This document shows, one piece after another, positions 6,167 through 63,896 of a DNA stretch of 64,000 nucleotides; within the stretch, counting starts at the first letter, position 1, and each line of letters begins with the position of its first letter. A program made the position numbers and the translations under genes. The DNA lies in assembly GCA_963668175.1 (NCBI GenBank), contig OY764159.1:3968001-4032000 (forward strand). The letters run 5' to 3'. This DNA is from Syntrophales bacterium. GTDB taxonomy: Bacteria; Desulfobacterota; Syntrophia; Syntrophales; PHBD01. A model generated the notes under the pieces. It had not been told where the DNA came from. It did not search any database and saw only the letters and a program-made list of their open reading frames with translations.

Positions 6167-6245
6167 CAGCAACGCGCCGTTCCCCCTATGGTTAAGATCG
6201 GCGGCGGGGAACAGCGGATTTCCGCGGCCAGGCCCCCCTTGCCGG

Positions 6246-6515: not shown

Positions 6516-6528
6516 CTTTTTGCTCCTC

Positions 6529-7712: not shown

Positions 7713-7744
7713 CGGTTCCTCGATTACGGATTGTCTTGCGGCAC

Positions 7745-8224
7745 CTACCGCAGCTTGTTGACCCTTTCGACAGGTGAAACGATGTCGGTCAGACGAACGC
7801 CGAATTTTTCGTTCACGACCACGACCTCCCCCCTGGCGATCAATTTCTGGTTGATGAAGACATCCATCGGCTCACCCGCCAGTTTACTCAGCTCGATGAC
7901 CGACCCCTGGCCGAGCTGCAGGAGCTCGCTGATCAACATCCTGTTCCTTCCCAACTCGACGGACAGGGTCAAAGGAATGTCGAGGATGAAATCCAGCTCC
8001 ATCGTTCCTGCCTTCGGAGGTTCTTTCTTTATCTCGGTGAAACTGGCTTCGCTGACCGCCGCCTTGGATACGGGATGGCTCGACTGTTCCATCTCTTCCT
8101 TGACGTCATCCCATCCGATTTCTTCATCGGCTTTCTGCGCGGGCGGCTCGGGTGCCGGCGGAGGCGCGCCGTCACCGTCCTGCTTCAGTTCTTTCAATAA
8201 GGCATCCAATTCACTCTGATCCAT
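7745..8224 (-). CDS. fliN: Flagellar motor switch protein FliN
   Basis: ILDIPLTLSVELG and ARGEVVVVNEKFGVR (SpoA domain). Confidence 0.95.
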   Translation of the reverse strand: MDQSELDALLKELKQDGDGAPPPAPEPPAQKADEEIGWDDVKEEMEQSSHPVSKAAVSEASFTEIKKEPPKAGTMELDFILDIPLTLSVELGRNRMLISELLQLGQGSVIELSKLAGEPMDVFINQKLIARGEVVVVNEKFGVRLTDIVSPVERVNKLR

Positions 8225-9212: not shown

Positions 9213-9279
9213 TCAAGAACCTCTCTTGTTGTAAATCTAAATAAAAAAGTCCGCGCGGATTCTCATCATTCGCGACGAA

Positions 9280-9774
9280 TTACTGGATGACAAAATCCAG
9301 AAAGTAGACCTTTTCGATCTTGCCCTTTGTTAAATAGCTGTTGACCCTCATCTGGATCTCTTCCCGGAGCCTCTGTTTCCCGCCCGTTTCCATCAAGTCC
9401 TTATAAGACTTGGCCGACAGGAGGTCCAGGATGTTATCGCGGATTTTCGGCTTAATCTGGTCGAGCTCCGCAACGGTGAGCGGATCCGAAACTTCGAGTT
9501 GAATGACCGCTTTGAGATATCGTTGTCCTTCGTTGTCGACCAGATTGACAATAAACGGTTCCATGGCCCACAGAGCTCCTATGGGTGGCTTCTGGTGGGC
9601 CGTTTCCTTCTTTGGGGCGGCCATTTTTACAAAATAGTAGTAGGCCCCCCCGGCGCCGCCTCCCAGAACAATGACCACGATACCGATGATGATGATCCAT
9701 TTCATCATCGATCCCTTACCCTTGGCCGGTTGTTCCTGTTCTGTCTTATCCTCGTCTTTATCCTCTTTCGCCAT
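9280..9774 (-). CDS. fliL: Flagellar basal body-associated protein FliL
   Basis: N-terminal TM, PFIVNL, RYLK, C-terminal VYFLDFVIQ. Start moved to MAKED. Confidence 0.93.
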   Translation of the reverse strand: MAKEDKDEDKTEQEQPAKGKGSMMKWIIIIGIVVIVLGGGAGGAYYYFVKMAAPKKETAHQKPPIGALWAMEPFIVNLVDNEGQRYLKAVIQLEVSDPLTVAELDQIKPKIRDNILDLLSAKSYKDLMETGGKQRLREEIQMRVNSYLTKGKIEKVYFLDFVIQ

Positions 9775-9857
9775 GAAGACACCTCGATATGAATAGTCTA
9801 TTACTCCCGGGAAGATGAACGATAAACCACACCCTGTCATAGACTGTAAAAATATAC

Positions 9858-9873
9858 AGCAAAGAGCATACCA
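9858..9873 (-). promoter_or_regulatory. sigma54 -24/-12 promoter for the fliL operon
   Basis: Minus strand TGGTATGCTCTTTGCT (GG-N10-GC), about 85 bp upstream of fliL. Confidence 0.75.
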
Positions 9874-10011
9874 GGGTATGGTTCAGGATAGTATCAGATT
9901 TTTATGAATAATACAACGATGTTAACAATTGACAGCAGCATGACGGCCGGCCATGATCGCTGGGGAAAGGTCTTTTTTGACAAAGGGTCAATTCTTTGAC
10001 ATCTTTTCAAG

Positions 10012-48038: not shown

Positions 48039-48142
48039 GAGACGATAAGATTCTTTTTCAGTCATTGATCTGGAAAACGACGAACCGCATTACACAATAG
48101 TCTTGTCAAAGGTCCATGCCGGACCTCCTGCGGGAAGGACAT

Positions 48143-49465
48143 ATGAATTTGAAGACCAACGACACGCATCGCACAACGTCTCTGAGAAGATTCTTGCCGC
48201 TTATTTTATGCTTTGCCGCGGGCCTGTGTGTGCTCATGGAACCGGGCAAGTGCTGGCCCCTGGACGCCAAAGAAATCATCGTCATTGCCAACCGGAACGT
48301 TCCGGACAGCAAAGCCCTCGCCTTCTACTACATGACCCGTCGCGGCATCCCCGCCGAAAACCTTCTTGTCCTTGCTCTGACGGACGAAGAGCATTGCTCC
48401 CGGGAAGAATACAATCAAGAGGCCGTCATTCCCGTGCGCAGGTTTCTCCAGGCAAAAGACCCCGAAAACCGGAGATTTCGCTGCATCGTCACCATGCACG
48501 GCGTTCCGCTCGTCGTGAACGGTTCCGGCCTGAACGTCAAGGATACAGCGAAAATTGCCGCCCTGAGGGATAGGATTAAGAATATACGGTCGGAACTGGC
48601 GAAGCAGTCCTTGAGCGAAAAAGAGAAGGATAAGGCCTATAAAGAAAAGATCGAGCCCCTGGAGCGGCAAGTCACAGCCGTCAGCAAAGCGGACAGCAGC
48701 GCCTCGTTCGATTCGGAGATAGCACTGGTTCGTGAGGCCGACTATCCCCTTGCCGGTTGGGTTCCCAATCCTTACTATCTGGGCTACCGGGGAAAATCGA
48801 TTAAGAACATGCCGTCCAAGGCCTTTATGATCGCGCGCCTGGACGGCCCCTCGAAACAGATCGTCACCCGGATCATCGACGACAGTCTTGCCGCCGAAGC
48901 CGGGGGATTGCGCGGCACAGCCTATTTCGACGCCCGCTGGCCCGACCCGGGGAAGAAGCAGTTGACCGGATATGCCTTCTACGACCGCTCCCTTCATTTG
49001 GCGGCGAAGCAGATCAGGGATAACGCCGTCATGCCCGTCGTGTTGGATGAAAAGGAACGGCTTTTTCAGCCGGGTGAGGCGCCCAATGCAGCCCTCTACT
49101 GCGGTTGGTACAGCCTAGCGAAATATGTCGATGCCTTCACCTGGGTGCCTGGTGCCGTTGGGTACCATATAGCGAGCGAGGAATGCGAGACGCTGAGAAA
49201 ACCCGGAAGCCGGGTATGGTGCAAGGTCATGCTCGAAAAGGGCGTCGCCGCCACGATCGGTCCCGTCAGCGAACCCTATGTCCAGGCTTTCCCGGTACCC
49301 GAAGTTTTTTTCACGTTCCTGATCAGCGGCCGCCTGACCCTGGCGGAATGTTACGCCCTCAGCAACCCCTTTCTGTCCTGGAAGATGGTCCTCATCGGCG
49401 ACCCGCTGTACCGGCCCTTCAAATACCGGGTGAACGCCGAGATGCCCGGACCGCACCGCCCATGA
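48143..49465 (+). CDS. TIGR03790-family exported protein
   Basis: Signal peptide, LAFYYMTRRGIP, ARLDGP, GWYS, GPVSEPY and IGDPLYRPF. Alternative start 48116. Confidence 0.78.
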   Translation: MNLKTNDTHRTTSLRRFLPLILCFAAGLCVLMEPGKCWPLDAKEIIVIANRNVPDSKALAFYYMTRRGIPAENLLVLALTDEEHCSREEYNQEAVIPVRRFLQAKDPENRRFRCIVTMHGVPLVVNGSGLNVKDTAKIAALRDRIKNIRSELAKQSLSEKEKDKAYKEKIEPLERQVTAVSKADSSASFDSEIALVREADYPLAGWVPNPYYLGYRGKSIKNMPSKAFMIARLDGPSKQIVTRIIDDSLAAEAGGLRGTAYFDARWPDPGKKQLTGYAFYDRSLHLAAKQIRDNAVMPVVLDEKERLFQPGEAPNAALYCGWYSLAKYVDAFTWVPGAVGYHIASEECETLRKPGSRVWCKVMLEKGVAATIGPVSEPYVQAFPVPEVFFTFLISGRLTLAECYALSNPFLSWKMVLIGDPLYRPFKYRVNAEMPGPHRP

Positions 49466-49576
49466 CCCGCCTTCACGGTTTCAGCAGGAAAGACGGCGGC
49501 TCAGGGTTTCATCCGACGGCATCGGAATGGTGTTGAGGGAAATAGTGAACGGCGCTTGATTCTTCATCCGTCGCGC

Positions 49577-50206
49577 CTAACGGAAGCAGGTCGGAATATC
49601 GTCCAGCGGCAAGAAGGCACAGGCCGTATAACGGCCGTCATGGCTTAAGCTCATGTCAAAGGGCGCACGATCCCCTCGAATCAGGACCCGGGGGACAGAA
49701 GCATATCCTGCGATGCCGATATCGTTCCCAGGCAACCCCAGATGACGGGACAGGAAAGCGATCCCGGCTTCTCTTACCAGAGCCGATTCGTCGGCGTTTG
49801 CATCGTTCCACCGGCAGACATCGGAAAGGATCGCATTGAGATCATCGTCCGAACCAGTGCAGGCCAGGCCATGCACATAATCGCTGTCTGAAAAGATACG
49901 AACATGAACGGCACCGACAGGCGTTTCCACCCTCCCGCGGACCGCAGTATCCCCATCGCTGCACCTCAATGTTACTTCGTAGCTGCGCGGTATCGAACAG
50001 ACTGGCGGCGCCAGTTTCGAGATCGCTTTGTATGCCGATTCCTTGGCTGCCCAGAGGGACCATAGAGCCCGGTCCGCCTCGGCGGAGTCAAGGATCATAC
50101 GCTGTTCAGCGGGTGTAAAGACGCGATTGACGAAGCGCCGATCCCTGCTCTTCCCCCTGTTTTCGGGATCGGTCAAATCCACCACATCGTTGCCGACGAA
50201 AGGCAA
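49577..50206 (-). CDS. 4'-phosphopantetheinyl transferase
   Basis: VGNDVVD, WAAKESAYKA and SLSHDG. TTG start at 50206 with GGAGGAGG upstream. Confidence 0.9.
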   Translation of the reverse strand: MPFVGNDVVDLTDPENRGKSRDRRFVNRVFTPAEQRMILDSAEADRALWSLWAAKESAYKAISKLAPPVCSIPRSYEVTLRCSDGDTAVRGRVETPVGAVHVRIFSDSDYVHGLACTGSDDDLNAILSDVCRWNDANADESALVREAGIAFLSRHLGLPGNDIGIAGYASVPRVLIRGDRAPFDMSLSHDGRYTACAFLPLDDIPTCFR

Positions 50207-50942
50207 AATAGGCCTCCTCCATGCGCGCCAGTTGCCGGATGATCTGTGCGGCGTAATGCCTCTGAGCGCGAAGCCCCGATTTCTCCGGCCGTTCCAGGTC
50301 CAACGTCTCGACATATACGGTGAAACGTTCGTCTCTCCGGGGAATCGTCCCCCAGGTTTCCTGGCCGTCGCCGCGGAGATAGACACACAGAACGCGGCAG
50401 TCTCCGCACGATTCCAGGAACCGGCCGGCGCCATAGGAAACGTTGTCGACGTCCACGCGACCGGTTCGCGAGCGGCCGCCCTCGGGAAATATCAGGAGGC
50501 TTTGTTTCTCCCCCAGAAGATACCGGCAGCGCGCCATCACGTCCTTCATCTCTTCGCTGTCGCCGCCCCGGTGAACGGGAACGCACTTGGCGAGATAACA
50601 GAGAGCGGTCAGGATAAAGCTTTTCTGGAAGTTGTCCCGTTCGGGCAGATTCCAGGGCAGGCACCGAAAATCGAACAAGTGCCGCTTCAGAGAGAACATA
50701 GCGTAGATGATAATGGCCGAATCCACCATGGTCAAATGATTGGCGCAAATCAGCCAGGGGCCGTCGTGGCCAGCCGTTTTGACGCGGCATTCCTCCCGGA
50801 TGCGGCGCAAATCCCTGATGCGGTAACCCCTCAGCCTGAGAAAGGCGAAATAGGCAGGGGCCAGAAGAAAGACGAACATCCCGCCCAGGAAGTACTGCCA
50901 CTTTAGGCTTGTCTTGAAGGAAATCTTCCTCATGACGCTCAA
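50106..50942 (-). CDS. PlsC-like lysophospholipid acyltransferase
   Basis: NHLTMVD (HX4D), FPEGGRS and an N-terminal TM. Confidence 0.88.
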   Translation of the reverse strand: MSVMRKISFKTSLKWQYFLGGMFVFLLAPAYFAFLRLRGYRIRDLRRIREECRVKTAGHDGPWLICANHLTMVDSAIIIYAMFSLKRHLFDFRCLPWNLPERDNFQKSFILTALCYLAKCVPVHRGGDSEEMKDVMARCRYLLGEKQSLLIFPEGGRSRTGRVDVDNVSYGAGRFLESCGDCRVLCVYLRGDGQETWGTIPRRDERFTVYVETLDLERPEKSGLRAQRHYAAQIIRQLARMEEAYFAFRRQRCGGFDRSRKQGEEQGSALRQSRLYTR

Positions 50943-51187
50943 TGCAGCTTCTTCTTAACCAGGGCAATGGCATCGCCGATGGTCCGGATCTTATCGGCCT
51001 CGTCGTCGTCGATCGTTACGCCGAAGACGTCCTCGCAGCGGATGATGACATCCACGAGCCTGGCCGAATTGACCTTCAGGTCCTTGAGGATGTGGGTCTC
51101 CGCGGTCGCCTTGTCCAGAAGGGCGACATCCTTCGTGTAGTTCTTCAAAATTCCCGTGATTTCCGTAAAAATCTGCTGTTCATCCAT
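50939..51187 (-). CDS. Acyl carrier protein (atypical DLKVNSARLVD motif)
   Basis: 82 aa with ACP pattern EDVFGVTIDD..A.KI.TIGD; Ser retained at the start of helix II. Confidence 0.9.
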   Translation of the reverse strand: MDEQQIFTEITGILKNYTKDVALLDKATAETHILKDLKVNSARLVDVIIRCEDVFGVTIDDDEADKIRTIGDAIALVKKKLH

Positions 51188-51205
51188 AACTTATGATCCT
51201 CCTTG

Positions 51206-52483
51206 CTATTCCTTCCATTTTTTAAATATGAGACAACTGTTCACGTCGCCAAAACCGAAGCCGGCCTTGGCGATGACGTTTAATTCGGGATAATCCAGGC
51301 ATGTCCTGGGAATCCGGTCCGTATAGGCCTCGATGTCCGGGTGGATGTCTTCGCAGTTCACCGACGGGTGAAGAAAACCCTTATAGAGCTGCAGGACAAC
51401 GGCGACGCACTCGATGGCGCCGGTCGCACCGAGGCAGTGCCCAATGAGCGACTTCGTCGCATTGATATAGGGAAATCTCTCCGGTCCCCGACCCAGGGCC
51501 TCCGACCAGTTTTTCACTTCGATGGGATCGGCATAGGTTGCCGTAAGGTGGCCGTTGATCGCATCGATGGCCTCCGGTTCGATACCCGCCTCTTGAACGG
51601 CGTTTCTGATGCAGCGTCCGACGCCCTCGGGATTCGGCGCCGTCATGGACCCTCCTTGCCGGTGCCCTCCGCAGTTGACTGCGCCGCTGAGAATCTCGGC
51701 ATATATCCGTGCCCCGCGGGCCAAAGCCGTCTCCAGCTCTTCCAGGACCAGGACAGCCCCGCCGGCACCCGGCACGAAGCCGCAGGCGCTGGCGCTCATC
51801 GGTCGCGACGCCGCCTCCGGATGTTCGTTGAACTTGCGGCAAATGACGCGCATGGCATCGAAACCGGACCAGATATAAGGTGACGCACCTTCCGATCCGC
51901 CGGCCAGCATCCTTTTAGCCAGTCCCATTCGTATCCGCAGGAAGGCGTCGATGATCGCCTCGTTACCCGTGCTGCATGCGGCCGAATTGGACGTAACCTG
52001 GTTGCCCAGGGCCAGTAAACCCGCGATGCGGGCACTGGTCCCGCTGTTCATCACCTGTTCGACGATCCGGCTCCCCAGGCGGCGGACTTTTCCCTCGTTG
52101 ACCATGGGCACGACGGACTTGGCGATCGTATCCATTCCGCCTATGCCGGAGCCGATAATCGCCCCGGTGTCCCAATCAACCCTGTCGTCGTCGGCTTCCG
52201 GCACTTCAAACCCTGCATCCGTCCAGGCATCGACGGCCGACACGGAGGCGTAGCCGATATTGTCGTTGATCGACATCAGTTTCTCGTGATCGAAATAGCG
52301 TTTCCGGATTGCATCGAAATCCTGCGGTACGCCGCCTACCTGACAGGCAAAGCTCAAATCCCTGAGTTCAGGGAGAAAGCGGATGCCCGACCGGCCTTCC
52401 CGCAACGCCGCTTCAAAGGCTTCCAGGCCGTGGCCATTCGGCGCGGCCACTCCCATACCCGTTATCACAACCCTATTTTTCAT
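51206..52483 (-). CDS. fabF: Beta-ketoacyl-ACP synthase (FabF/FabB family)
   Basis: RVVITGMG and Cys-His-His triad (AACSTG, NGHLTAT, GHCLGA). Start at MKNRV. Confidence 0.9.
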   Translation of the reverse strand: MKNRVVITGMGVAAPNGHGLEAFEAALREGRSGIRFLPELRDLSFACQVGGVPQDFDAIRKRYFDHEKLMSINDNIGYASVSAVDAWTDAGFEVPEADDDRVDWDTGAIIGSGIGGMDTIAKSVVPMVNEGKVRRLGSRIVEQVMNSGTSARIAGLLALGNQVTSNSAACSTGNEAIIDAFLRIRMGLAKRMLAGGSEGASPYIWSGFDAMRVICRKFNEHPEAASRPMSASACGFVPGAGGAVLVLEELETALARGARIYAEILSGAVNCGGHRQGGSMTAPNPEGVGRCIRNAVQEAGIEPEAIDAINGHLTATYADPIEVKNWSEALGRGPERFPYINATKSLIGHCLGATGAIECVAVVLQLYKGFLHPSVNCEDIHPDIEAYTDRIPRTCLDYPELNVIAKAGFGFGDVNSCLIFKKWKE

Positions 52484-52952
52484 CGAGAACAACCCCCATA
52501 CCGGCCAGCACGGCGCTGCACACGGCTTCTCCGTTTTCCTTTTCCATGCCGACCCTGACTCTGATTGCATTGTTGCGGAAATAGACCTTCTCGCCGCGTA
52601 TTACCACGCGCTCGCCCGGTTCGACCATCCCGGTGAACTCGACACCGTCCGCAAAGGTAAATAGCGTGACCATGCTATCTGTCTTCCCGGGAGCCATCTT
52701 GCCCTGCACAATGCCAAGATAGATACCGAAGGCCACAACACCCGTCTGGGCCATCGTTTCCACGAGAATGACCCCCGGCGTCACGGGACGGCCCGGAAAA
52801 TGGCCCCGGTAAAAATATTCGTCCTCGTGAAAGCGATAGGAACCGACGATATGGTTCTCGTCAATCTCCAGGATATCGTCGATGAAGCGAAACGGCGCCT
52901 GCTGGGGAACCGCCGCCAGAATCCGTTTCTGCAAAAGGGGATCAACCTCCAT
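52473..52952 (-). CDS. fabZ: FabZ-type 3-hydroxyacyl-ACP dehydratase
   Basis: PFRFID and GHFPGRPVTPGVILVETMAQ (His/Glu dyad). Confidence 0.88.
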   Translation of the reverse strand: MEVDPLLQKRILAAVPQQAPFRFIDDILEIDENHIVGSYRFHEDEYFYRGHFPGRPVTPGVILVETMAQTGVVAFGIYLGIVQGKMAPGKTDSMVTLFTFADGVEFTGMVEPGERVVIRGEKVYFRNNAIRVRVGMEKENGEAVCSAVLAGMGVVLDEK

Positions 52953-53673
52953 AGAGCCCTCCATTGACGTGGATGACGCTGCCCGTGATGTAGGACCCTT
53001 TGGAGGCCAGAAAAGCAACAACCTCTGCCACCTCCGAAGCCCGTCCTATCCTGGCGAGCGGTATTTTTTCCAGAATCCGCTCCTTGATCTCGTCCGGCAA
53101 CCCGGCCGTCATTTCCGTATCGATAAAACCCGGCGCCACGGAGTTGACCAGGATATTACGTCCCTTCATCTCCTGGGCCAAAGACTTCGAGAAGGCGTCA
53201 AGGGCCGCTTTTTCCATGGTATAGGGAATCTGGCCGCCGTTCCCCGTGTGTCCTACCACGCTGGAGATATTAACGATCCGGCCGCTGTCCTGGCGGAGCA
53301 TAAAGAGCCTGATGACCCTCTTGGTCAGGTACCAGACGCCTCGCATAACCGATCTCTGTTCGTCGAACTGCTCCATCTTCATGCTGTTGATGTCGGCGTT
53401 GATCGACATCCCGGCGTTGTTGACGAGCACATCCACACGCCCGGCCTTGTCCCTGATCTCGCCGATCATGGCATCAACCTCTTCCGGCCGGGAAAGATCC
53501 GCCCGCACCAGAAAACCGTCGCCTATATCCGCCAACACGGCGGCCGCATCCCGTTCGCTGCTGCGGTAATGGATGCCCAGCCGGAATCCCTGTTCGGCAA
53601 GGGCATAGCAGCAGGCGGCACCGATATTACGGCCGCCGCCCGTCACCACAGCCACTTTTTTTTCATTCGTCAT
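52942..53673 (-). CDS. fabG: 3-oxoacyl-ACP reductase (SDR)
   Basis: TGGGRNIG, NNAG, YTMEK (YxxxK) and PGFIDTEMT. Confidence 0.88.
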   Translation of the reverse strand: MTNEKKVAVVTGGGRNIGAACCYALAEQGFRLGIHYRSSERDAAAVLADIGDGFLVRADLSRPEEVDAMIGEIRDKAGRVDVLVNNAGMSINADINSMKMEQFDEQRSVMRGVWYLTKRVIRLFMLRQDSGRIVNISSVVGHTGNGGQIPYTMEKAALDAFSKSLAQEMKGRNILVNSVAPGFIDTEMTAGLPDEIKERILEKIPLARIGRASEVAEVVAFLASKGSYITGSVIHVNGGLYGG

Positions 53674-54262
53674 TTTTCACCATGATTCCGCCGGTGGAAT
53701 ATCCGGACCGCATGGGATAATCCCGGTAGGCGATGTCCTTGAATATCCCCGTTCGTGCTTCTTGAACGGTCATGACCAGTTCGTCGTCGACGAAGACCCG
53801 GCCATCCCCGATGGCAATGCTCGCCCCCGACTCCTTCAAATGCGAATAGCGTCTCACATCCACTTCATAGCGGACGCACCGGTTATAGGGCCGGATCTGT
53901 CCGTTGAACGACACCTCCCCGCAGCCGAGGGCCCTTCCCGACCCCAGGGCACCGCTCCAGGTGCAGAAGTAGCCGAGGAGCTGCCATATGGCATCCACAC
54001 AGAGGCATCCCGGCTGAACGGGATCGCCCAGCATATGGCACTGGAAATACCAGGCATCCAGCCGGACGTCCTGCTCCGCAACGACGGACCCGCGCCGGCC
54101 TTCGCTTTTTATGGAGAGGATGCGGTCCACCATCAGAAACGGCGGTGCCGGCAGCCTGCCGTCGAAATCCGCGGGAGGGTCCTCGATCAATCTTCCATAG
54201 GCAAAGGCCAGCAATTCCTCGAAACGGAATTCATGGCGCTGTCGATACTCGTTATAGGTCAT
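53663..54262 (-). CDS. fabA: FabA-type dehydratase/trans-2,cis-3 isomerase
   Basis: LPAPPFLMVDRI, CHMLGDPVQPGCLCVDAIWQ (His/Asp dyad) and GRALG. Confidence 0.9.
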   Translation of the reverse strand: MTYNEYRQRHEFRFEELLAFAYGRLIEDPPADFDGRLPAPPFLMVDRILSIKSEGRRGSVVAEQDVRLDAWYFQCHMLGDPVQPGCLCVDAIWQLLGYFCTWSGALGSGRALGCGEVSFNGQIRPYNRCVRYEVDVRRYSHLKESGASIAIGDGRVFVDDELVMTVQEARTGIFKDIAYRDYPMRSGYSTGGIMVKNDE

Positions 54263-54305
54263 CCCGTCATCTTCTTCGATTCAAGTACCGTAAAAACGCT
54301 TCCAT

Positions 54306-55292
54306 CTATGCTTCAACGGACAGGAGCATATGGCCCCAGGTCAATCCCGCCCCAACCAGGGCGATTGCCGCCTGGTCGCCGGGACGGAGTTCATCCCAGT
54401 GCTGGCTCAAGACGGAAGGCCCTCCGGCGCAGCCCTGGTTTCCGTAAAATTCGACATTATGCCAGTGGTCCCCTTCGGCGACGCCGCACCGTTCGCAGAC
54501 GGTCTGCAACATTCCCAGATTGGCCTGATGGCCGATGAATATCAGGCAGGCACCGTTGTTCCTTGCTTCGGATTGCAGAGTCCGCAGGGAATCGGTTGTC
54601 CGCCGGATCGCAAAACCCTGAACGGCGCTTCCATCCTGCCAGAAATACCCGTTCCGCGGCACCCTGGCCTTGTCCCACGACGACGGTTTGGAGCCGCATT
54701 CGCAGTGGGTGACGATTTTCCCGGCCGGGACCGACGCCGACACGACGCAGGCGGCACTGCCATCGCCAAAGAGGACGGCGTTGGCCCGGTCGGAATAATC
54801 GATCGAACGGGTCACATTGTCCGGCTGGACAAGGAGGATGAACGGCGGCAAGGCCTCCGGCCTCATCCTGGACAGGAAATTCATCTGGACGCCGAAAGTG
54901 GAGCAGGCCGAATTCAGATCGAAGCAGGGGGCTTCGATGCCCAGTTCGGAGGCAATCGTGGCGGCCTCGGCGGGCGTTAGTGTATCGGGGATGGAACTGC
55001 CGGATATGACGAGGCCGATATCGCAAGACGAAAGGCCGGCACGCTCAAGGGCCATCCGGGCGGCGGCGGCGCCCGTCTTGGCGTTGCATGTCATACTGGC
55101 CTCATAGGCCTCCCTCGGATCCCTGTTCTTCGTTTGTTTGATATAATCGAGGGGAAGGACGGAATGACGGGTGTGAATCCCGACCCGTTCCAGAATCCAT
55201 TCTTCGCTCGTACCGATGTCCAGCTCTTCCAGGAACCGGTTTGTGATGATGTTGTCGGGATGGTAATGGCCGATGCCGTGCAGATATAACAT
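54306..55292 (-). CDS. fabH: Ketoacyl-ACP synthase III
   Basis: Cys-His-Asn triad (SACSTF, HQAN, YGN), LFGDG and GAGLTWG. Confidence 0.9.
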   Translation of the reverse strand: MLYLHGIGHYHPDNIITNRFLEELDIGTSEEWILERVGIHTRHSVLPLDYIKQTKNRDPREAYEASMTCNAKTGAAAARMALERAGLSSCDIGLVISGSSIPDTLTPAEAATIASELGIEAPCFDLNSACSTFGVQMNFLSRMRPEALPPFILLVQPDNVTRSIDYSDRANAVLFGDGSAACVVSASVPAGKIVTHCECGSKPSSWDKARVPRNGYFWQDGSAVQGFAIRRTTDSLRTLQSEARNNGACLIFIGHQANLGMLQTVCERCGVAEGDHWHNVEFYGNQGCAGGPSVLSQHWDELRPGDQAAIALVGAGLTWGHMLLSVEA

Positions 55293-55296
55293 ACGC

Positions 55297-56496
55297 TTAT
55301 AAGATCTCCCGTCCGATAATCATGTTTTGAACCTCCCTCACACCCTCATAAATATCGATGATATGCGCATCCCGAACCAGTTTCGAAATCTCGTACTCGG
55401 CCGTAAAGCCGTACCCCCCATGCAGGTGCAGACCCTCGTTGGCGCAGTAAAGGGCGGCCTCCGCCGCCGTATTTTTAGCCAGCGATGCATAGAGCCCCCG
55501 GTCCTCCGCCTTTTCCTGAACCTTGAAGGCCGCCTTCATCAGGGCGAGTTCGGCCAGTTCGACCTTTTTCCACAGGGATACGATCGTCTCCCTGGCGACG
55601 GGCAGGTCGGCGATCCTCTGGCCGAATTGCTGGCGCATCTTCGTGTACTCGACCGTCACATCGAGGGCGCGCCTCGCAAGGCCGACGCCGATGGCCGCCA
55701 CCATCGGCCTGGCGTAATCCAGGACGTCGACGATGTATTTGAAGCCCTGCCTTCGATCGCCGATGATCTGATCGTCTTCCAGGACGACATCCTCGAAGCT
55801 GACGCTCGCCGTGTTCGACATGCGCTGGCCCAGTTTATCCTCAGGCTTGCCGATGACGACCCTGCCGCCTCCCGCAAGGACAACTTCGCGCCCCCTGCCA
55901 GTCTCCACACCCGCATCGCCGGGCAGCAGCGGGGGAACCGGAACGACGACACAGGCCATGAAGTTCCCCGTCGGCTTGCCGACTTTGCAGAAAACGGTGA
56001 ACTGGGAGGCGAAGGACGCATTCGTGATGAAGCATTTGGACCCGTTCAGGACATATTTGCCGTCATTCCGTTTGCCGATGAAGGTCGTCATCGCCGAATT
56101 GTCCGATCCCGCATTGGGTTCCGTGAGACAGAAGGATGCCAGCAGCGGTTTCTCCGTGAACGGCCTGAGAAAGGCCTCTTTCTGGGACTGTGTACCCTGC
56201 TGGGCTATGGCCGCATTGGCCAGGTCGTTGCACATGGCGGAGGTGGAAATTCCCGTATCGCCGTAAGAAAGCTCCCGGATGATCAATGCCGACGATACGA
56301 CATCGACCTCGTATCCCTTGACGGATTCGGGAATGCATAGGTTTAGAATCCCGAGTTCCCATATCTTCGTAATGATATCCCAGGGAAATCGATGCTCCCC
56401 ATCCCATACCAGGACGTTGGGCGTGATTTCGCTCCGGACGAACCTGACGACGGTGTCGATATACATTTGCTGCTGCTCTGTTAGCGTGAAATCCAC
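55297..56496 (-). CDS. Acyl-CoA/acyl-ACP dehydrogenase family flavoprotein
   Basis: LTEPNAGSD, LNGSKCFITN, RQQFG, HGGYG and IYEG. Confidence 0.92.
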   Translation of the reverse strand: MDFTLTEQQQMYIDTVVRFVRSEITPNVLVWDGEHRFPWDIITKIWELGILNLCIPESVKGYEVDVVSSALIIRELSYGDTGISTSAMCNDLANAAIAQQGTQSQKEAFLRPFTEKPLLASFCLTEPNAGSDNSAMTTFIGKRNDGKYVLNGSKCFITNASFASQFTVFCKVGKPTGNFMACVVVPVPPLLPGDAGVETGRGREVVLAGGGRVVIGKPEDKLGQRMSNTASVSFEDVVLEDDQIIGDRRQGFKYIVDVLDYARPMVAAIGVGLARRALDVTVEYTKMRQQFGQRIADLPVARETIVSLWKKVELAELALMKAAFKVQEKAEDRGLYASLAKNTAAEAALYCANEGLHLHGGYGFTAEYEISKLVRDAHIIDIYEGVREVQNMIIGREIL

Positions 56497-56549
56497 GATC
56501 GATCCTTATAATAATGTTCGGCAAGTGCCGTTTAACACATCCGGCAATC

Positions 56550-57497
56550 TCAGTTGGAACCGGCAAATATCCTCATCGCCGCCGACAGGGTCGTCACGGA
56601 GAGGCAGTCGACCTGCATGGTTTTGAAGAATTCCCGAAGGGGCCGGCCCGGTCCTATTTCATAGATCGCCGCCGAATGTTTCGAGAGTGCCGCCATGTTG
56701 CTCCTCCACTGCACAGGATTGCTGATCTGGAAGACGAGATCCCGGATCACTTCATCGACCAGATCGCTGTGGAACCCCCCCGTATAATTGGACGTTACAC
56801 GGGTTGTCCTTCGCATATCGAGCGCCGAGGCCATTTCCTGAAGCGCATCTTCGAACGGCCTTTCGATTCTTCTCATGAACCGGCTGTGAAACGGCGCGCT
56901 CACATTGAGAGGTACAAAGTGAAAATTCTGATCGTCCGGCATCGTCCCCATGACCCGGAGGGCGGCAGCCGACATGGAATCGGCCGACCCGCTGATCACA
57001 ACCTGCTGAATGGAATTGACGTTGGCGACATCGACGGGAAGATCGTCGAGGGCCTTTTGAATGGCTCCGGCGTCGAGACGGTCGGAGATGACTGCCGACA
57101 TGCCGCCGATCCCTATGGGCGCCGCATCCTGCATCAATCTTCCCCGAAGGTGGACGATCTTCAGCGCATCGGCGAAAGGCAGGGCCCCGGCGGCAACCAG
57201 CGCGGTGAATTCGCCGAGGCTGTGACCGCCGAAAATATCCGGTTCGAATCCGAAAAGACTCTTTAATCCCCGGAGCATGGCGATCTCCGTCGTCAGAATG
57301 CACGGCTGCGTGTATTCCGTAAGGTCGAGCCTCGCATCTTCGCCGAAGCAAAGTTCCCCGACATTCCATCCCAGGGCATCGGATGCCTCTGCATATGTAT
57401 CGCGGCTTGCGACAATACGATCGTAAAAATCCTTACCCATGCCGGGTCTCTGTGACCCCTGGCCGGGAAACACGGCGGCTACTTGACGTTCTTTCAT
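56550..57497 (-). CDS. fabD: Malonyl-CoA:ACP transacylase
   Basis: FPGQGSQ, GHSLGE, RGRLM and SAPFHS. Confidence 0.94.
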   Translation of the reverse strand: MKERQVAAVFPGQGSQRPGMGKDFYDRIVASRDTYAEASDALGWNVGELCFGEDARLDLTEYTQPCILTTEIAMLRGLKSLFGFEPDIFGGHSLGEFTALVAAGALPFADALKIVHLRGRLMQDAAPIGIGGMSAVISDRLDAGAIQKALDDLPVDVANVNSIQQVVISGSADSMSAAALRVMGTMPDDQNFHFVPLNVSAPFHSRFMRRIERPFEDALQEMASALDMRRTTRVTSNYTGGFHSDLVDEVIRDLVFQISNPVQWRSNMAALSKHSAAIYEIGPGRPLREFFKTMQVDCLSVTTLSAAMRIFAGSN

Positions 57498-57962
57498 CGG
57501 TATCCCCTCCTGCCCGTTGTTTCAATCCATCCGTTATGCCGTTCGCGCATCGCGCTGCATGACGACGACGCAGAAGCACTATCCATGCCAATCGCGACCG
57601 GCGGTCACACGAACAGATTTAACTTGTCGAATATAAAAGGTTATAAATCGATTTATTCACCGGCCGTGCGGCTGGACAGGAAGGGATACGGGCCCGGTTT
57701 TTCTGCATACGCTTTTTCACAGTGCGAACGGGGCTACACAACCGGGAGCGCCCAGTAGCGGCTTCGAAAACTACGGCCGGCCTTTGCGATTCCGTTGAGA
57801 CAACCTTGATCATTGACCGCCTTGGTGATATAAGGGCTATGCAGTAAATATTCTCTTTCCTTTTCCTTAACTGGCATCCTTTGCAGTCAAATTGCATTCT
57901 TTACGCCGGACGCGCCATCAAGCCTTCCGGACGTGGTTCAGTCATCATTTTCATAATCTATT

Positions 57963-59645
57963 ATGAGGATTCGATCGATGCTTCATGAACCTACTCACCT
58001 GGAAATGAAACAGGAAATTGAAGATTTCAAAGAAGCCCTGGCGGCGCAGAAACAGATTGAAGAAGCCCTCAGGGAAAGCAAGCAGATCTACAAAATGATC
58101 TCCGAAAAATCGTTTGCCGGCATCTATGTCGTGCAGGACGGTAAATTCCGTGCCGTCAACCCCAGTGCCGCCTTCTATGCCGGATACACGATAGGGGAGT
58201 TAACCGGAATGAAATCGGACTGCATCGTCCATCCCGACGACCGTCTCCAAGTTAAGCGCGATGCCCGCGCCATGCTGCGGGGCGAACGGGTATCGCCCTA
58301 TGAATTCCGGATCATCACGAAAGACGGTCAAATACGCTGGATCATGGAAACGGTGACGTCCATATTCTTCGAAGGGCGGCCGGCCATCCTCGGCAATTCG
58401 ATGAACATCACCGATCGCAAGCAGATCGAAGAACGATTGAAGGAGTCCGAAAACCTTTACCGGGCCATCTTCGAGACGACACCCGCGGCGACCATCATCG
58501 TCGAAGAAGATACGACCATCTCCCTCGTCAATTCGCAATTCGAAAAGCTTTCCGGCTACCGCAAAGAGGAGTGGGAAGGTAAGAAGTCGTGGACCGAGTT
58601 CGCAGCACCCAAAGATGTCGAACGCATGATGCATTATCATCACCGGCGGCGCACGAGCCCCGGCCTGGTACCCCGGAATTACGAATTCAGCCTCATCGAC
58701 AGTCTCGGCCGCACGCGGGAAGTGACACTCATCGTCGATATGATTCCGGGGACGAAGAAGAGCGTCGCCTCGCTGCTCGATATCACGGAACGCAAGAGGT
58801 CCGAGGAAAAGATGCTGGAGAGCGAGAACCTGTACCGGACCATTTTCGAAACCACGGGCACGGCAACCATCATCGTGGAAGAAGACATGACGGTATCCCT
58901 CGTCAATACGGAGTTCGAGAAGATGTCCGGGTCACCCAAATCCTGCTGGGAGGGAAAGAGAAGCTGGACGGAGTTCGCATCGAAAAAGGACGTTACCAGA
59001 ATGAAGAAGTACCACTTCGCCCGGAGGGTGGACCCCAATCTGGCGCCCCGAAACTATGAATTCGGCTTCATCGACCGGCAGAAAAACCTCAAGGACACCA
59101 TCATCACCATTTCAATGATCCCCGGAACCAAGAAGAGCGTGGCTTCCTTTGTCGATATCACCGAACGGAAACGGGCCGAAAAGGAATTGAAAAAAAGGGA
59201 GGCGGAACTGCAGATCAATTCCGCCAACCTGCAGGAGGTCAATACGGCCCTCCGGATTCTTCTGAAGCAAAGGGAAGAGGACAAGAACGAATTGGAAAGC
59301 AAGGTCCTGTCGAACGTCAAGGAGCTGGTTCTGCCCTATATCGATAAGATCAAGAAGCTTCGCATGGACAAGAGGGGACTGGCCTATATCGAAAGCCTCG
59401 AATCGAACCTGAAGGACATCATCTCGCCGTTTTCCTACAAGCTGTCCTCCCAATATCTCAATCTGACGCCGAAGGAACTGCAAGTGGCCAACCTGATCCG
59501 GGAGGGAAAAACGAGCAAGGAGATTGCCGAAATGACCAATGTCTCCCGCAGCGCCATCGATATCCACCGTTACCGCATCCGGAACAAGCTGGGACTGAAC
59601 AACAAGAAAGCGAATCTCCGTTCATACCTGTCATCTTTCACATAA
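57963..59645 (+). CDS. Triple-PAS LuxR-family transcriptional regulator
   Basis: Three PAS/PAC repeats ending in (N/D)IT(D/E)RK, and C-terminal LTPKELQVA..GKTSKEIA..HRYRIRNKLG. Start may be 57978. Confidence 0.92.
   Translation: MRIRSMLHEPTHLEMKQEIEDFKEALAAQKQIEEALRESKQIYKMISEKSFAGIYVVQDGKFRAVNPSAAFYAGYTIGELTGMKSDCIVHPDDRLQVKRDARAMLRGERVSPYEFRIITKDGQIRWIMETVTSIFFEGRPAILGNSMNITDRKQIEERLKESENLYRAIFETTPAATIIVEEDTTISLVNSQFEKLSGYRKEEWEGKKSWTEFAAPKDVERMMHYHHRRRTSPGLVPRNYEFSLIDSLGRTREVTLIVDMIPGTKKSVASLLDITERKRSEEKMLESENLYRTIFETTGTATIIVEEDMTVSLVNTEFEKMSGSPKSCWEGKRSWTEFASKKDVTRMKKYHFARRVDPNLAPRNYEFGFIDRQKNLKDTIITISMIPGTKKSVASFVDITERKRAEKELKKREAELQINSANLQEVNTALRILLKQREEDKNELESKVLSNVKELVLPYIDKIKKLRMDKRGLAYIESLESNLKDIISPFSYKLSSQYLNLTPKELQVANLIREGKTSKEIAEMTNVSRSAIDIHRYRIRNKLGLNNKKANLRSYLSSFT
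58443..59192 (+). repeat. Internal tandem duplication of a 375-nt PAS unit
   Basis: Both units read ESENLYRxIFETT...PRNYEF...MIPGTKKSVAS..DITERKR; starts at 58443 and 58818. Confidence 0.85.
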
Positions 59646-60196: not shown

Positions 60197-61051
60197 ATGG
60201 AAATCAAGAAGGTCTGCGTATTGGGAGCAGGATTGATGGGAAACGGCATAGCGCAGGTGTGCGCCCAGGCGGGCTATACGGTGACGCTTCGTGACATCGA
60301 GCAGAGGTTCATCGACGGCGGCATGAAGACGATCACGAAGAACCTGAGCAAGGACGTGGAGAAGGGAAAACGGAGCCAGGAGGAGATGGACGCGATCCTC
60401 GGCCGGATCAAGCCGACGCTGGATATGAAGGAAGCGGCGACGGGGGCGGACATCGTCGTGGAAGTCGTGATCGAAGTGATGGACGTAAAGAAGCAGGTTT
60501 ACACGGAACTGGAAAAGATCGTTCCGGACCACTGTCTCTACTTCACGAACACGTCGGGACTGAGCATTACGGAGATGGCGGCGATCACGAAACGGCCGGA
60601 CCGTTTCATCGGGACGCACTTCTTCAACCCGGTGCCGGTGATGCGCCTGCTTGAGATCATCCGGGGTTACGAGACGTCGGAGGAGACGCTGGAGACGGCG
60701 AAAGCCTGGGGGAAGAAGATCGGCAAGGAAGTGATCGTGGTGAAAGAGGCGCCGGCGTTTGCGGTGAACCGGATCCTGTGCGTGATGCTGAACGAGGCGT
60801 TCTTTGCGCTGGACGAGGGGATAGCGACGGCGGAGGATATCGACAAGGGGATGGTGCTGGGCTGCAATCATCCGATCGGCCCGCTGGCCCTGTCGGACCT
60901 GGTGGGCAACGAGACGCTCCTGCGGGTGGTGGAAGGTCTGCACCGCGAGCTGGGGGACAAGTACCGTCCGGCTCCGCTGTTGAGGAAACTGGTGAGGGCG
61001 GGCCGCTACGGCAGAAAGACGGGCAAAGGGGTTTACGAATATACGAAGTGA
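60197..61051 (+). CDS. hbd: 3-hydroxybutyryl-CoA / 3-hydroxyacyl-CoA dehydrogenase
   Basis: [23 protein letters not shown] and [10 protein letters not shown]; strong AAGGAG RBS. Confidence 0.92.
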
Positions 61052-61214
61052 TTGTTGCGGCCGCACTGGAAAAGAAACCGGGGGGAGTCCCATGCGGCAG
61101 ACGGATAAGGCAGACAAGGAAAGGAGGTGAAGACGTAGTAAGCGGGCAGCAGATTCCTATACGTGAGATCTTATCGACCAGCATTTCGTGAAGTCATCAA
61201 AAGGAGGGAACGTT

Positions 61215-62540
61215 ATGCCAGTCTTTAGCCATTACGTTAAGAACAAATTCAAGAAACCGGCACCCCTGAAGGGCGTCCGGGTTCTTGAAGTATGCACGCT
61301 CCTGTTCGGACCGTCCGGTCCGTCATTTCTGGCCGAGATGGGGGCCGAAGTGATCAAGATCGAATTGCCGCCCATGGGCGACGTAACCCGCTCCCTGAAC
61401 CCGTTCGGATGGTTCTACAAGGAGCAGTCGCCGATGTTCATGCATATCAATCCGAACAAGTATTATATGGCCCTGGATCTCCATATCGACATCGGACAGC
61501 AGATATTCAAGGAACTGGCGGCCAAATCCGACATTATCGAATTCAACTTAAGACCAGGCGTCACCCGCCGCTGGAACATCGGCTACGAACAGATCAGGGA
61601 GGTGAATCCGGGCATCATCTACATCGAAAAGAACGGTTTCGGTCAGTGGGGTCTCTACGCCGAGCAGGACCGGCCCTCAAATGACGGAGCAGCCCAGGCC
61701 CTGGCCGGATATGCGTGGATGTCGAGTTTTCCGGGCCGCCCACCGCTGAAGCAGGCCATCTGGATCTGCGATTACTACGGCGGCCTCATGGGCGAAGTAG
61801 CCGTCCTAGCCGCTTTGCACCACCGCAAAAAGACCGGCAAAGGTCAGTTCATCGAAATGTCGCAGATAGAAAACATCATGAGAACGATGGGCTGGGTATG
61901 GCCTTATCAGCAATTCACCGGCAAAGGCGTCGATCCGGTGGGGAACCGCGACATGTGCATCTGCCCGGCCGATACGTTCCTCTGCAAAGACAATCTGCTT
62001 GTTGCCCTTGCCGCCCCGGCGCCCGACGAATTCAAGGGGCTGTGCATCGCCATGGGGAAGCCCGAACTGGCTGAAGACCCCCGTTTCAAGGAACATACCG
62101 TCCGCCTGAAGGACGAAAACGCCTTGGCCATCCTTTCAATCATCGCCGACTGGGCCAGGACGAAGACCGCGGAAGAAATCGAAAATCTCGGTAAAGTAAA
62201 CTGTTTTTCCGCCACAAGGCTCCACAACGCCAAGGACATGAACACCGATCCACACCGCCGTGAGCGCGATTTCGTCAAAGAGATCGACGATCCCATGTAC
62301 GGCTGTTATATGGAGCATGAATTTCCGGTCATGATGTCGAAAACGCCGCCGAAGATCAAATGGACGGTCCGGCCGGTGGGTTTCGACAACGACTACGTCA
62401 TGGTGAAAATCCTCGGAAGAAACCAGGCCCAGATCGACGAATTATACATGCACGGCGTTCTGGGGAGATGGAAAGACCAACAGGGACGGCGGCCGCCGTC
62501 GGACTGGGACCAGCAATCCGGTCTTATCATAAGGAGGTGA
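61215..62540 (+). CDS. Family III (CaiB/BaiF) CoA-transferase, subunit with catalytic Asp
   Basis: PLKGVRVLE, GAEVIKIE, GFGQWG and ICDYYGG. Start at MPVFS with GGAGG. Confidence 0.9.
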   Translation: MPVFSHYVKNKFKKPAPLKGVRVLEVCTLLFGPSGPSFLAEMGAEVIKIELPPMGDVTRSLNPFGWFYKEQSPMFMHINPNKYYMALDLHIDIGQQIFKELAAKSDIIEFNLRPGVTRRWNIGYEQIREVNPGIIYIEKNGFGQWGLYAEQDRPSNDGAAQALAGYAWMSSFPGRPPLKQAIWICDYYGGLMGEVAVLAALHHRKKTGKGQFIEMSQIENIMRTMGWVWPYQQFTGKGVDPVGNRDMCICPADTFLCKDNLLVALAAPAPDEFKGLCIAMGKPELAEDPRFKEHTVRLKDENALAILSIIADWARTKTAEEIENLGKVNCFSATRLHNAKDMNTDPHRRERDFVKEIDDPMYGCYMEHEFPVMMSKTPPKIKWTVRPVGFDNDYVMVKILGRNQAQIDELYMHGVLGRWKDQQGRRPPSDWDQQSGLIIRR

Positions 62541-62546
62541 TTCATT

Positions 62547-63896
62547 ATGGCAGACCATAAGAGACCCAAATGGGCGGACTGGGCGGACTATATCAGGGCG
62601 CAGGACGATCCGTTGAAGAACTTCGAGAAGCCCGAGGCGCTCGACGATCTCGTTGTCCTGGACTTGAGCTCGCGGAGCATGGCCGGATGCTATTGTTCAT
62701 CGCTCCTTGCGGAATTGGGTGCCTTGACGATCCGTATCGAACAGCCAGGGGGAGACCTTGTCAGGACGTATTCCCCCAACGGCTTCATGCACCGAGACAC
62801 CGGTATGGCCTATCTCCAGGAAGGCCGCAACAAATACCATATCACCCTGAACCTGGAAACCGAAGAAGGCAGGGACATCCTCAAGGCGCTGGTCGCCAAC
62901 GCCGACATCCTGATTGAAACCTACCCGGCGGGCAAGATGGATCAATGGGGCATCGGTTATGAAGCCTTAAGCGAAATCAACCCAAGACTCATTTTCACGT
63001 CGATAAGCGGCTACGGCCAATTCGGGCCGGAAAGCGGGCGCAACCAGTACGACTACGACAATGTCTCCCAGGCACGTTCAGGCGTTCAATATGCCACCGG
63101 CGAAGTCCTGCCGGAAGGGAAGACGCTGGCAGACATGCCCTATGCGACATCCACCAAGGCCGGACCATGGATCGCCTGGGCCACTTCCGGCACTTTCGGG
63201 GCCGTCGGCATCCTCGCTGCCGTCTATTACCGAGAACTGACCGGCGAAGGTCAGGCCATCGACATTGCCACACCGGAAGCCTACGAACGGCTCAACGATT
63301 ACATGCTTCACTGGTATGCCGACCAGGGCGTCGTCAACGAGCGCTTCGGCAACCTCGACACCTGCCTGTGGCTCTACGGATTCTATCCCACCAAAGACGG
63401 CGGCGTCTTCCTCGGGGGGCTGCGGCTGGAGATGTGGAAGGCCTTCGTGGACATCATCGGCAAATACGACGAATGGGGCGCCGACCAGTGGACATCGCTG
63501 GCGCCTTTCATGAAGAAAGACTGGCAGCTCAAATATCAATCCATGATCAACCCGGAAACGGAGAAATACACCAGTCACGAATTGACGGAAAAGTCCATCG
63601 AATACGCCAAAAGCGGGCGCCTGGCGCCGATCACGCCGGTAGTGGCCGAAATCGTCCCGCCCCAGAAAACCATGCAGGACGAGGTGTGGCGTGACCGCGG
63701 CATCTTCACCCCCGTCCAGGACCCGGTCTACGGTTCCGTGATATGCGCCCAGTCGCAGTGGAAATCGACAGAAACGCCCCCGCGGACCAAGTGGGTCTGC
63801 CGGCCGGTGGGATTCGACAACGGTTACATCTATCTGAAATACCTTGGCTTCGGCCCGGTGAAACAGAAGGAATTGGAAGAAAAGGGCATCATTTAA
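62547..63896 (+). CDS. Family III (CaiB/BaiF) CoA-transferase, subunit lacking catalytic Asp
   Basis: ALDDLVVLD, EGRNK, SGYGQFGP and GEGQAID. IAWATSG stands at the Asp position. Confidence 0.88.
   Translation: MADHKRPKWADWADYIRAQDDPLKNFEKPEALDDLVVLDLSSRSMAGCYCSSLLAELGALTIRIEQPGGDLVRTYSPNGFMHRDTGMAYLQEGRNKYHITLNLETEEGRDILKALVANADILIETYPAGKMDQWGIGYEALSEINPRLIFTSISGYGQFGPESGRNQYDYDNVSQARSGVQYATGEVLPEGKTLADMPYATSTKAGPWIAWATSGTFGAVGILAAVYYRELTGEGQAIDIATPEAYERLNDYMLHWYADQGVVNERFGNLDTCLWLYGFYPTKDGGVFLGGLRLEMWKAFVDIIGKYDEWGADQWTSLAPFMKKDWQLKYQSMINPETEKYTSHELTEKSIEYAKSGRLAPITPVVAEIVPPQKTMQDEVWRDRGIFTPVQDPVYGSVICAQSQWKSTETPPRTKWVCRPVGFDNGYIYLKYLGFGPVKQKELEEKGII

Follow-up and report, generated by a model that had tools for sequence, protein, structure and literature searches.

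An acyl-CoA dehydrogenase homologue in the enoyl-reductase position of a type II fatty acid synthesis operon of Syntrophales

Which enzyme reduces the enoyl intermediate in a fatty acid synthesis operon that carries the other genes of the elongation cycle and no recognizable enoyl reductase gene? The question is raised by a locus of a Syntrophales bacterium (GenBank assembly GCA_963668175.1, contig OY764159.1, positions 3,968,001–4,032,000 of the forward strand; this stretch of 64,000 nucleotides is referred to as the window), in which the minus-strand open reading frame (ORF) at 55297–56496 starts with GTG and encodes a 399-residue homologue of acyl-CoA dehydrogenases (ACADs). The ACAD gene comes second among ten genes of the same direction, ordered FabD-ACAD-FabH-FabA-FabG-FabZ-FabF-ACP-PlsC-PPTase, where ACP is an acyl carrier protein and PPTase a phosphopantetheinyl transferase; FabD lies 53 nucleotides (nt) upstream and FabH starts (55292) 4 nt past the ACAD stop. 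Comparison with Pfam and NCBIfam models identified FabD, FabH, FabA, FabG, FabZ, FabF, ACP and PPTase in the operon and no FabI-, FabK- or FabL-like gene, and the ACAD occupies the reductase position of a type II fatty acid synthesis (FAS II) gene set that is otherwise without a reductase. We propose that it works reductively as the enoyl-thioester reductase of the operon, in place of a FabL-like enzyme and probably with electrons of the type carried by electron-transferring flavoprotein (ETF), a proposal to which we give about an even chance of being right.

The evidence that carries this proposal comes from homologous operons in which a different gene stands in the ACAD slot. The genome sample comprised 401 genomes of the phylum, 14 from the window's order and 387 others, and orthologues of the ACAD, called at a threshold of E ≤ 1e-120, are present in all 14 genomes of the order and in none of the 387. 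The operon-type PlsC acyltransferase occurs in 17 of the 401 genomes, five of them outside the order, and around these five genes lies an operon with the same gene order, encoding proteins 42–66% identical to those of the window, and no ACAD. Together with loci from further searches this gives twelve homologous operons outside the order (L110–L114, L116–L120, L131 and L132), whose FabD, FabH, FabG and FabF are 45–69% identical to those of the window; none of the twelve has an ACAD match within the stretches examined. In all twelve, the slot is filled by a short-chain dehydrogenase/reductase (SDR) of about 313 residues, directly past FabD (where present) and ahead of FabH or FabG, and three of these SDRs aligned pairwise share 52–56% identity. 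With the SDR as query we retrieved five metagenomic contigs (L116–L120), four of which show FabD-SDR and then fab genes ordered as in the window, the sequence of L120 starting only at the SDR, and two further genomes (L131 and L132) with the arrangement FabD-SDR-FabH-FabZ-FabF-ACP-PPTase. The slot SDR is found in seven of the 401 genomes, which include no member of the ACAD-bearing 14, and was detected neither in the 80 ACAD-type loci, taken from genome assemblies, nor in the window's own genome; across the 401-genome sample, ACAD and slot SDR are mutually exclusive. A quick tree joins the ketosynthases (KSs) of the two operon types in a single clade (SH-aLRT 99) that excludes the six other ketosynthases of the window's genome.

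The slot SDR is most likely an enoyl reductase, as far as its sequence tells. A profile of 37 members of the SDR family has its best match in FabL of Bacillus subtilis (3oic, enoyl-ACP reductase III; 83 bits), and the invariant Tyr215 and Lys222 align with the Tyr-x6-Lys pair of FabL (YttvgvsK). A single-sequence search gave 2,4-dienoyl-CoA reductase, a noroxomaritidine reductase and FabL as the best matches in the PDB. Two of four tested SDRs passed the cut-off of the Pfam family Enoyl_reductase, the catalytic domain of trans-2-enoyl-CoA reductase, and many homologues are assigned to the trans-2-enoyl-CoA reductase family in precomputed annotation. By position, the ACAD replaces an SDR of reductase type, and non-orthologous displacement of the enoyl reductase is the simplest reading of this swap. 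A preliminary description of the locus, made from the DNA alone, had offered the ACAD as a possible missing enoyl reductase; to this suggestion are now added twelve sister operons with a FabL-like Tyr-x6-Lys SDR in the slot, and mutual exclusion in 401 genomes. The same description had held that absence of the ACAD from most homologous operons would count against the idea; outside the order the ACAD is indeed absent from every one of the twelve, yet the FabL-like gene standing in its slot argues for a reductase.

The protein itself is a member of the ACAD superfamily by domains, fold and catalytic residue alike. Its three Pfam matches all exceed their cut-offs (PF02771, 88 bits; PF02770, 66 bits; PF00441, 127 bits), and the closest solved structure is medium-chain acyl-CoA dehydrogenase (MCAD; 236 bits, approximately 34% identity). 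Glu384, in the IYEG motif (codon at 55345–55347, minus strand), aligns with Glu376 of MCAD and is identical in 81/81 clade sequences, in all of which Thr158, a contact of the flavin adenine dinucleotide (FAD), is conserved too. The AlphaFold model, for which 71 sequences were aligned, has a mean predicted local distance difference test (pLDDT) score of 94.8, and Foldseek superimposes it on structures of MCAD, butyryl-CoA dehydrogenase (Bcd) and short-chain acyl-CoA dehydrogenase with TM-scores of 0.89–0.91. In Pfam and NCBIfam only ACAD families match, with no homology to FabI, FabL, FabV or FabK. The best NCBIfam model, acryloyl-CoA reductase AcrC (NF042972), scores 251 bits, below its cut-off of 640, and the MbtN-type acyl-ACP dehydrogenase model NF037942 scores 39.5 bits, below its cut-off of 700. 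Eight basic residues (K60, R248, R249, R294, R302, K310, R333 and R387) are conserved in the clade and not in other ACADs; they include the Arg-Arg pair 248–249 and Arg387, three residues past the catalytic Glu, and could provide a surface on which the very acidic ACP docks.

A 21-residue insert (residues 187–207, VPPLLPGDAGVETGRGREVVL; 55876–55938, minus strand) in the middle beta-domain, just before GKPEDKLGQR, sets the clade apart from other ACADs: in an alignment with 57 non-clade ACADs, its columns consist of at least 90% gaps. It is present in all 80 related loci with constant length (±1), so it is not an artefact of a frameshift or of assembly, an explanation that we considered and rejected. 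The first half of the insert is variable and the second half belongs to the conserved motif REIxLPxGGKIxIGKPEDKLGQR. Residues 190–199 have a mean pLDDT of 57 in the model, strands are predicted at 203–206 and 212–215, and the end of the insert appears as an extra beta-hairpin directly before the conserved GKPEDKLGQR. Several observations of the preliminary description thus stand as they were made: the place of the ACAD as second gene of a biosynthetic operon, ending 4 nt ahead of fabH, the retention of the catalytic Glu of the IYEG motif, and the roughly 20-residue insertion before KPEDKLGQR.

By sequence comparison the ACAD forms an isolated clade. Among the best 120 matches of a word-indexed protein search, all are of near-identical length and at least 74% identical to the ACAD, and those with named sources come from assemblies of Syntrophales, Syntrophaceae or Smithella. 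A scan of 1.84 billion cluster representatives (50% identity) found one full-length ACAD representative, at 74% identity. Apart from the intermediate hits P0128 (45%), P0179 (44%) and P0192 (43%), the next full-length single-domain matches below this value reach at most 39%. The window's own genome encodes 25 other ACAD paralogues, all of them at most 33% identical to the operon ACAD. In a search of open-access papers and preprints we found neither this operon nor an enoyl-ACP reductase of ACAD type described, and the proposed role would be a new one for a known enzyme family.

We infer the reductive direction of the ACAD because its slot alternates with an SDR of a C=C-reducing type whose NAD(P)H-dependent enzymes work reductively; to our knowledge, NAD(P)H-dependent enoyl reductases operate in the reductive direction only. 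The substrate carrier would likewise be ACP rather than CoA. In the proposed cycle, FabD would load malonate on the private ACP, FabH and FabF would condense, and keto reduction would fall to FabG and dehydration to FabZ, or in some variants to FabA. C3 of the resulting trans-2-enoyl thioester would then receive a hydride from the FAD of the ACAD and C2 a proton from Glu384. The usual ACAD reaction would thereby run backwards, as it does with butyryl-CoA dehydrogenase/Etf, acryloyl-CoA reductase or caffeyl-CoA reductase, with electrons supplied by an ETF encoded elsewhere in the genome; the PlsC-type acyltransferase would pass the finished chain to a lipid acceptor.

ACADs have no nicotinamide site and the enzyme would therefore need a protein electron donor, most likely ETF. 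Three ETF-alpha genes are encoded in the genome, at about 0.11, 1.00 and 3.70 Mb, more than 270 kb away, the window spanning 3.968–4.032 Mb. In MCAD, the docking pocket that takes up the ETF recognition loop and the salt bridge are formed by F23, G60, L61, T64, L73, L75, I83 and E212 (PMC10925408). The clade has Y12, G49, I/L/V50, L53, Y/F62, I/V64, I72 and E219 at these positions, conserved throughout and either hydrophobic or identical, with the counterpart of Glu212 retained. The same paper describes the pocket as largely conserved in ACADs generally (PMC10925408), so its conservation here lends weak support to ETF as the donor.

The ACAD combines features of several known systems. It shares the ACAD fold, FAD and the Glu of the YEG motif with Bcd/EtfAB, AcrC and the caffeyl-CoA reductase CarC, all of which reduce an enoyl thioester, the direction proposed for the operon ACAD, whose top matches include the Bcd structures 1buc, 4l1f and 5ol2. 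Unlike AcrC and Bcd-Etf, it has no adjacent etf genes, is encoded with an ACP in a FAS II operon and not among fermentation genes, contains the 21-residue insert, and scores 251 bits against the 640 demanded by the AcrC model. With MCAD it shares the ETF-docking positions, whereas Trp166 of MCAD is Phe156 in 81/81 sequences of the clade, which also differs by its own insert, its own basic residues, and a biosynthetic rather than catabolic context. FabL, FabI, FabV and FabK would have the same role in the elongation cycle, and a FabL-like enzyme fills the slot in the sister operons; these enzymes use NAD(P)H directly and have no sequence or fold relation to the ACAD. MbtN, FkbI, TcsD and the dehydrogenases RedW, PigA and AnaB, which act on prolyl groups bound to peptidyl carrier proteins, are ACAD-fold enzymes of biosynthetic clusters with carrier-bound thioester substrates. 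The RedW model gives 166 bits and the PigA model 162 bits for the operon ACAD, and 4irn is matched with 133 bits; all scores against the models of this group are far below the cut-offs (650, 500 and 700, the last that of MbtN). These carrier-protein-dependent ACADs oxidise their substrates, and we know of none in this set that belongs to a fatty acid elongation cycle.

The gene content around the ACAD varies in a way that bears on its role. Of the related loci, 61 have at least 6 kb of sequence downstream of the ACAD, and in 59 of these the ACAD is followed by FabG-FabZ-FabF-ACP-PlsC-PPTase; the complete downstream series FabH-FabA-FabG-FabZ-FabF-ACP-PlsC-PPTase is found in 23, the same set minus FabA in 29 (two of them with FabH remnants only), and neither FabH nor FabA in seven, and the remaining two loci contain FabD-ACAD only. 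FabA is an independent, optional module that varies regardless of the slot gene, since it is present in 23/61 ACAD-type loci and in 7/12 SDR-type operons. Among 63 loci with at least 3.6 kb upstream, FabD adjoins the ACAD in 26, lies upstream at a distance of about 2 kb in another 26 and of about 1 kb in one, and is not found in ten. In the second group the gap of about 2 kb would be taken up by a gene of Smithella-type operons for a 5S-type carboxyltransferase with HMGL-like and PYC_OADA domains, identified in L030 only (8438–9907, plus strand); transcarboxylation by this enzyme may be a source of malonyl-CoA.

Two genomes of one genus (G240 and G296; 99–100% complete) have no private ketosynthase or acyltransferase and keep a FabD-ACAD-FabG-like trio. 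Loci in which this trio stands without a private ketosynthase, ACP or acyltransferase are L127 (G240; 4796–7902), L128 (G296) and L075 (9001–12054). G240, G296 and G180 have no FabD other than the one next to the ACAD; G394 has a single FabD, located elsewhere than the ACAD, and the window's genome has two. Retention of the ACAD next to a sole FabD suggests that in some lineages it may serve housekeeping synthesis, and such a role would fit a general reductase. In the window's genome the housekeeping acpP-fabF pair stands alone, and its other FabH, FabG and FabD genes, of which FabG scores above its curated cut-off, flank the polyhydroxyalkanoate synthase gene PhaC (genome positions 907–912 kb, L129), a setting unusual for housekeeping fab genes. 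Describing the operon as a simple second fatty acid synthase beside a complete housekeeping set consequently needs qualification, given the solitary acpP-fabF pair, the other FabH, FabG and FabD at PhaC, and relatives with one FabD.

A number of observations weigh against the ACAD as the enoyl reductase of the operon. The preliminary description reported no etf genes nearby, and this extends to all loci compared: neither the window nor any of the 80 related loci gave an ETF-alpha homologue, and the reductive ACADs Bcd, AcrC and CarC do have adjoining etf genes. The best NCBIfam model for the slot SDR is FabL, at 106–121 bits, which is below the curated cut-off of 328. The SDR model (pLDDT 91.8) gives its highest TM-scores with FabI (0.70–0.73) in a fold search, but ketoreductases are similar and the E-values are flat. 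Three of the twelve SDR-type operons (L114, L131 and L132) are without FabG, and there the SDR could be a ketoreductase instead. The base of the ketosynthase tree is not settled, and the number and direction of the replacements are not given by it. The ACAD is kept in genomes without private ACP and ketosynthase, so its function does not depend on that ACP, and a role at the CoA level would fit this retention equally well. The FabK-like paralogues of these genomes could supply a reductase in trans, in which case the operon need not encode one: the window's genome has one of 305 bits about 6 kb past the window end and two of about 238 bits, and five relatives have one to six each, all (own genome and relatives) at 220–305 bits against a cut-off of 453. 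As for other reductases of the genome, FabI was not found with the queries used, namely the model PRK08415.1, which we take to be a FabI model (at most 55 bits), and an NCBIfam comparison of three of the genome's 24 SDR matches. A Pfam search of the genome for FabV gave no match, but the control likewise matched in no control genome.

It is against this background that the strongest alternative has to be judged, in which the ACAD interconverts enoyl-CoA and acyl-CoA, for example crotonyl-CoA and butyryl-CoA, so as to provide or to remove the FabH primer, or is a beta-oxidation enzyme travelling with the operon, and a FabK-like reductase acts in trans. Its closest characterized relatives, MCAD, Bcd and AcrC, all use CoA thioesters, the displaced SDR weakly matches the trans-2-enoyl-CoA reductase family too, FabK-like paralogues exist in all five relatives examined and in the window's own genome, and survival of the ACAD where private ACP and ketosynthase are missing fits a CoA substrate as well. 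Supply of a FabH primer, however, does not account for the seven of 61 loci in which the ACAD is kept without FabH, nor for the two with FabH remnants only; a travelling catabolic enzyme is difficult to reconcile with an identity of at most 33% to the genome's 25 other ACADs and with 59/61 conserved operons in which beta-oxidation genes never adjoin the ACAD. An operon duplicating every other FAS II function would, moreover, have to miss just the reductase, and would have to do so in both operon types. We therefore regard a role at the CoA level as unlikely, although it is the alternative that survives best.

Quite improbable, in our estimate, is a tailoring dehydrogenase that introduces a double bond into a finished ACP-bound chain, at the alpha,beta or another position, with the reductase of the cycle coming from elsewhere. 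There are precedents for both positions, MbtN forming an alpha,beta double bond and TcsD one at another position, and the operon resembles specialized-lipid clusters in having its own ACP, PPTase and acyltransferase; the eight clade-specific basic residues, as a possible ACP-docking surface, would suit such an enzyme too. The ACAD scores just 39.5 bits with the MbtN model, whose cut-off is 700, however, and a tailoring role leaves unexplained both the enoyl-reductase-like SDR in the same slot elsewhere and the survival of FabD-ACAD-FabG-like genes without a private ACP.

The preliminary description had also entertained an O2-independent desaturase, an acyl-ACP dehydrogenase forming trans-2-enoyl-ACP for isomerization to the cis-3 product by FabA, which we consider very improbable: ACADs are normally oxidative, ACP-acting members exist (the prolyl-ACP dehydrogenase 4irn is a 133-bit relative) and a FabA above its curated cut-off is encoded two genes downstream of the ACAD in the window, but the scattered occurrence of FabA (23/61 and 7/12 in the two operon types) does not follow the ACAD, the replaced gene is of a C=C-reducing type and a FabL-like NAD(P)H reductase would on thermodynamic grounds not be plausible as a desaturase, and FabA needs no dehydrogenase, as the Escherichia coli enzyme makes its own trans-2 intermediate from 3-hydroxyacyl-ACP. 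FabX of Helicobacter pylori is a flavoenzyme that links the interconversion of acyl-ACP and enoyl-ACP to anaerobic unsaturated fatty acid synthesis; it belongs to the FabK/nitronate-monooxygenase-like family, works oxidatively and also isomerizes. The analogy would require a coupling to FabA that is not conserved in the ACAD-type loci.

The remaining genes of the operon, all on the minus strand, are assigned as follows. The first, at 56550–57497, encodes a FabD-like malonyl-CoA:ACP transacylase of 315 residues (PF00698, 111 bits; TIGR00128, 238 bits, below the cut-off of 260.9). Downstream of the ACAD lie a FabH-like 3-ketoacyl-ACP synthase III of 328 residues (54306–55292; PF08541 and PF08545; NF006829, 179 bits, below the cut-off of 249), a FabA-like dehydratase/isomerase of 199 residues (53663–54262; NF003509, 200 bits, above the cut-off of 124), and a FabG-like ketoreductase of 243 residues (52942–53673; TIGR01830, 235 bits, below the cut-off of 298; PF13561, 185 bits). 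The FabZ-like dehydratase (52473–53021; PF07977, 62 bits) has an ORF of 182 residues with a true start probably near 52964, and its homologue in L030 has 162 residues. The FabF/FabB-like elongating ketosynthase (51206–52570; PF00109 and PF02801) has an ORF of 454 residues with a likely start at M30 (52483), and scores 295 bits with TIGR03150 and 259 bits with the FabB model, both below the cut-offs. The private ACP (50939–51187; 82 residues; PF00550) contains the motif DLKVNSARLVD, which is invariant in 26/26 aligned ACPs of the clade and has Asn-Ser where the usual ACP motif has Asp-Ser. A PlsC-type acyltransferase of 278 residues (50106–50942; PF01553, 48 bits) and a PPTase (49577–50434; PF01648, 49 bits; ORF of 285 residues, start uncertain) complete the operon; the longest ORFs of these two overlap by 329 nt (50106–50434) in different frames, and overlaps of this kind recur at related loci, such as one of about 320 nt in L115.

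Upstream of the operon we noted a sigma-54-type −24/−12 element, TGGCATGGATAGTGCT (GG-N10-GC; 57575–57590, minus strand), about 78 nt from the FabD start, which is a consensus match only. It was seen by eye and with a looser pattern, and a strict pattern allowing at most one mismatch found none upstream of FabD. Near-identical elements, TGGCAYGGATTGTGCT, occur 60–200 nt upstream of the first cluster gene in 28/73 related loci (upstream of FabD or of the ACAD in, among others, L003, L026–L029 and L033) and in 0/73 control stretches inside the ACAD gene. A scan of 49000–58100 for promoters and terminators was at chance level, with 5 promoter-like hits against 4.5 expected and 12 terminator-like hits against 8.4 expected. 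Directly upstream of the operon, L030 encodes a sensor kinase together with a sigma-54 activator. The window has a divergent PAS-LuxR-type helix-turn-helix regulator beside the operon (57963–59645, plus strand) with a close counterpart in L001 only; other relatives have a sensor kinase and a sigma-54 activator at this place.

Further genes of the neighbourhood include a 449-residue ORF between the operon and ispG (48116–49465, plus strand), which has an N-terminal hydrophobic stretch, no Pfam match and no counterpart in the 80 loci, and a catabolic-looking set at 60197–63896 (plus strand) with a 3-hydroxyacyl-CoA dehydrogenase and two family III CoA-transferases. Just past the window, at genome positions 4032105–4038869, lie another ACAD (29% identical to the operon ACAD) and the best FabK-like gene of the genome.

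Enoyl reduction is the most variable step of bacterial fatty acid synthesis and a classic drug target, for which a handful of enzyme classes is known. If the ACAD is indeed the enoyl reductase of the operon, an ACAD-fold and probably ETF-linked enzyme would add a class with a different electron source. More tentatively, and with less than even confidence, the clade could be viewed as a fifth structural class of bacterial enoyl-ACP reductase, one with an ACAD fold that draws its electrons from the ETF pool instead of NAD(P)H, that replaced a FabL-like reductase in an ancestor of the Syntrophales, and that has become a housekeeping enzyme in some lineages. The swap of SDR and ACAD at a single operon slot provides a directly testable gene pair. 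Annotation pipelines name the protein an “acyl-CoA dehydrogenase” of beta-oxidation, and metabolic reconstructions of Syntrophus and Smithella may consequently misplace it. Should the proposed reaction hold, membrane-lipid synthesis would be tied to the redox economy of the syntrophs that drive methanogenic degradation, and lipid synthesis in these organisms could consume the ETF-level electrons of beta-oxidation, the ones hardest to dispose of.

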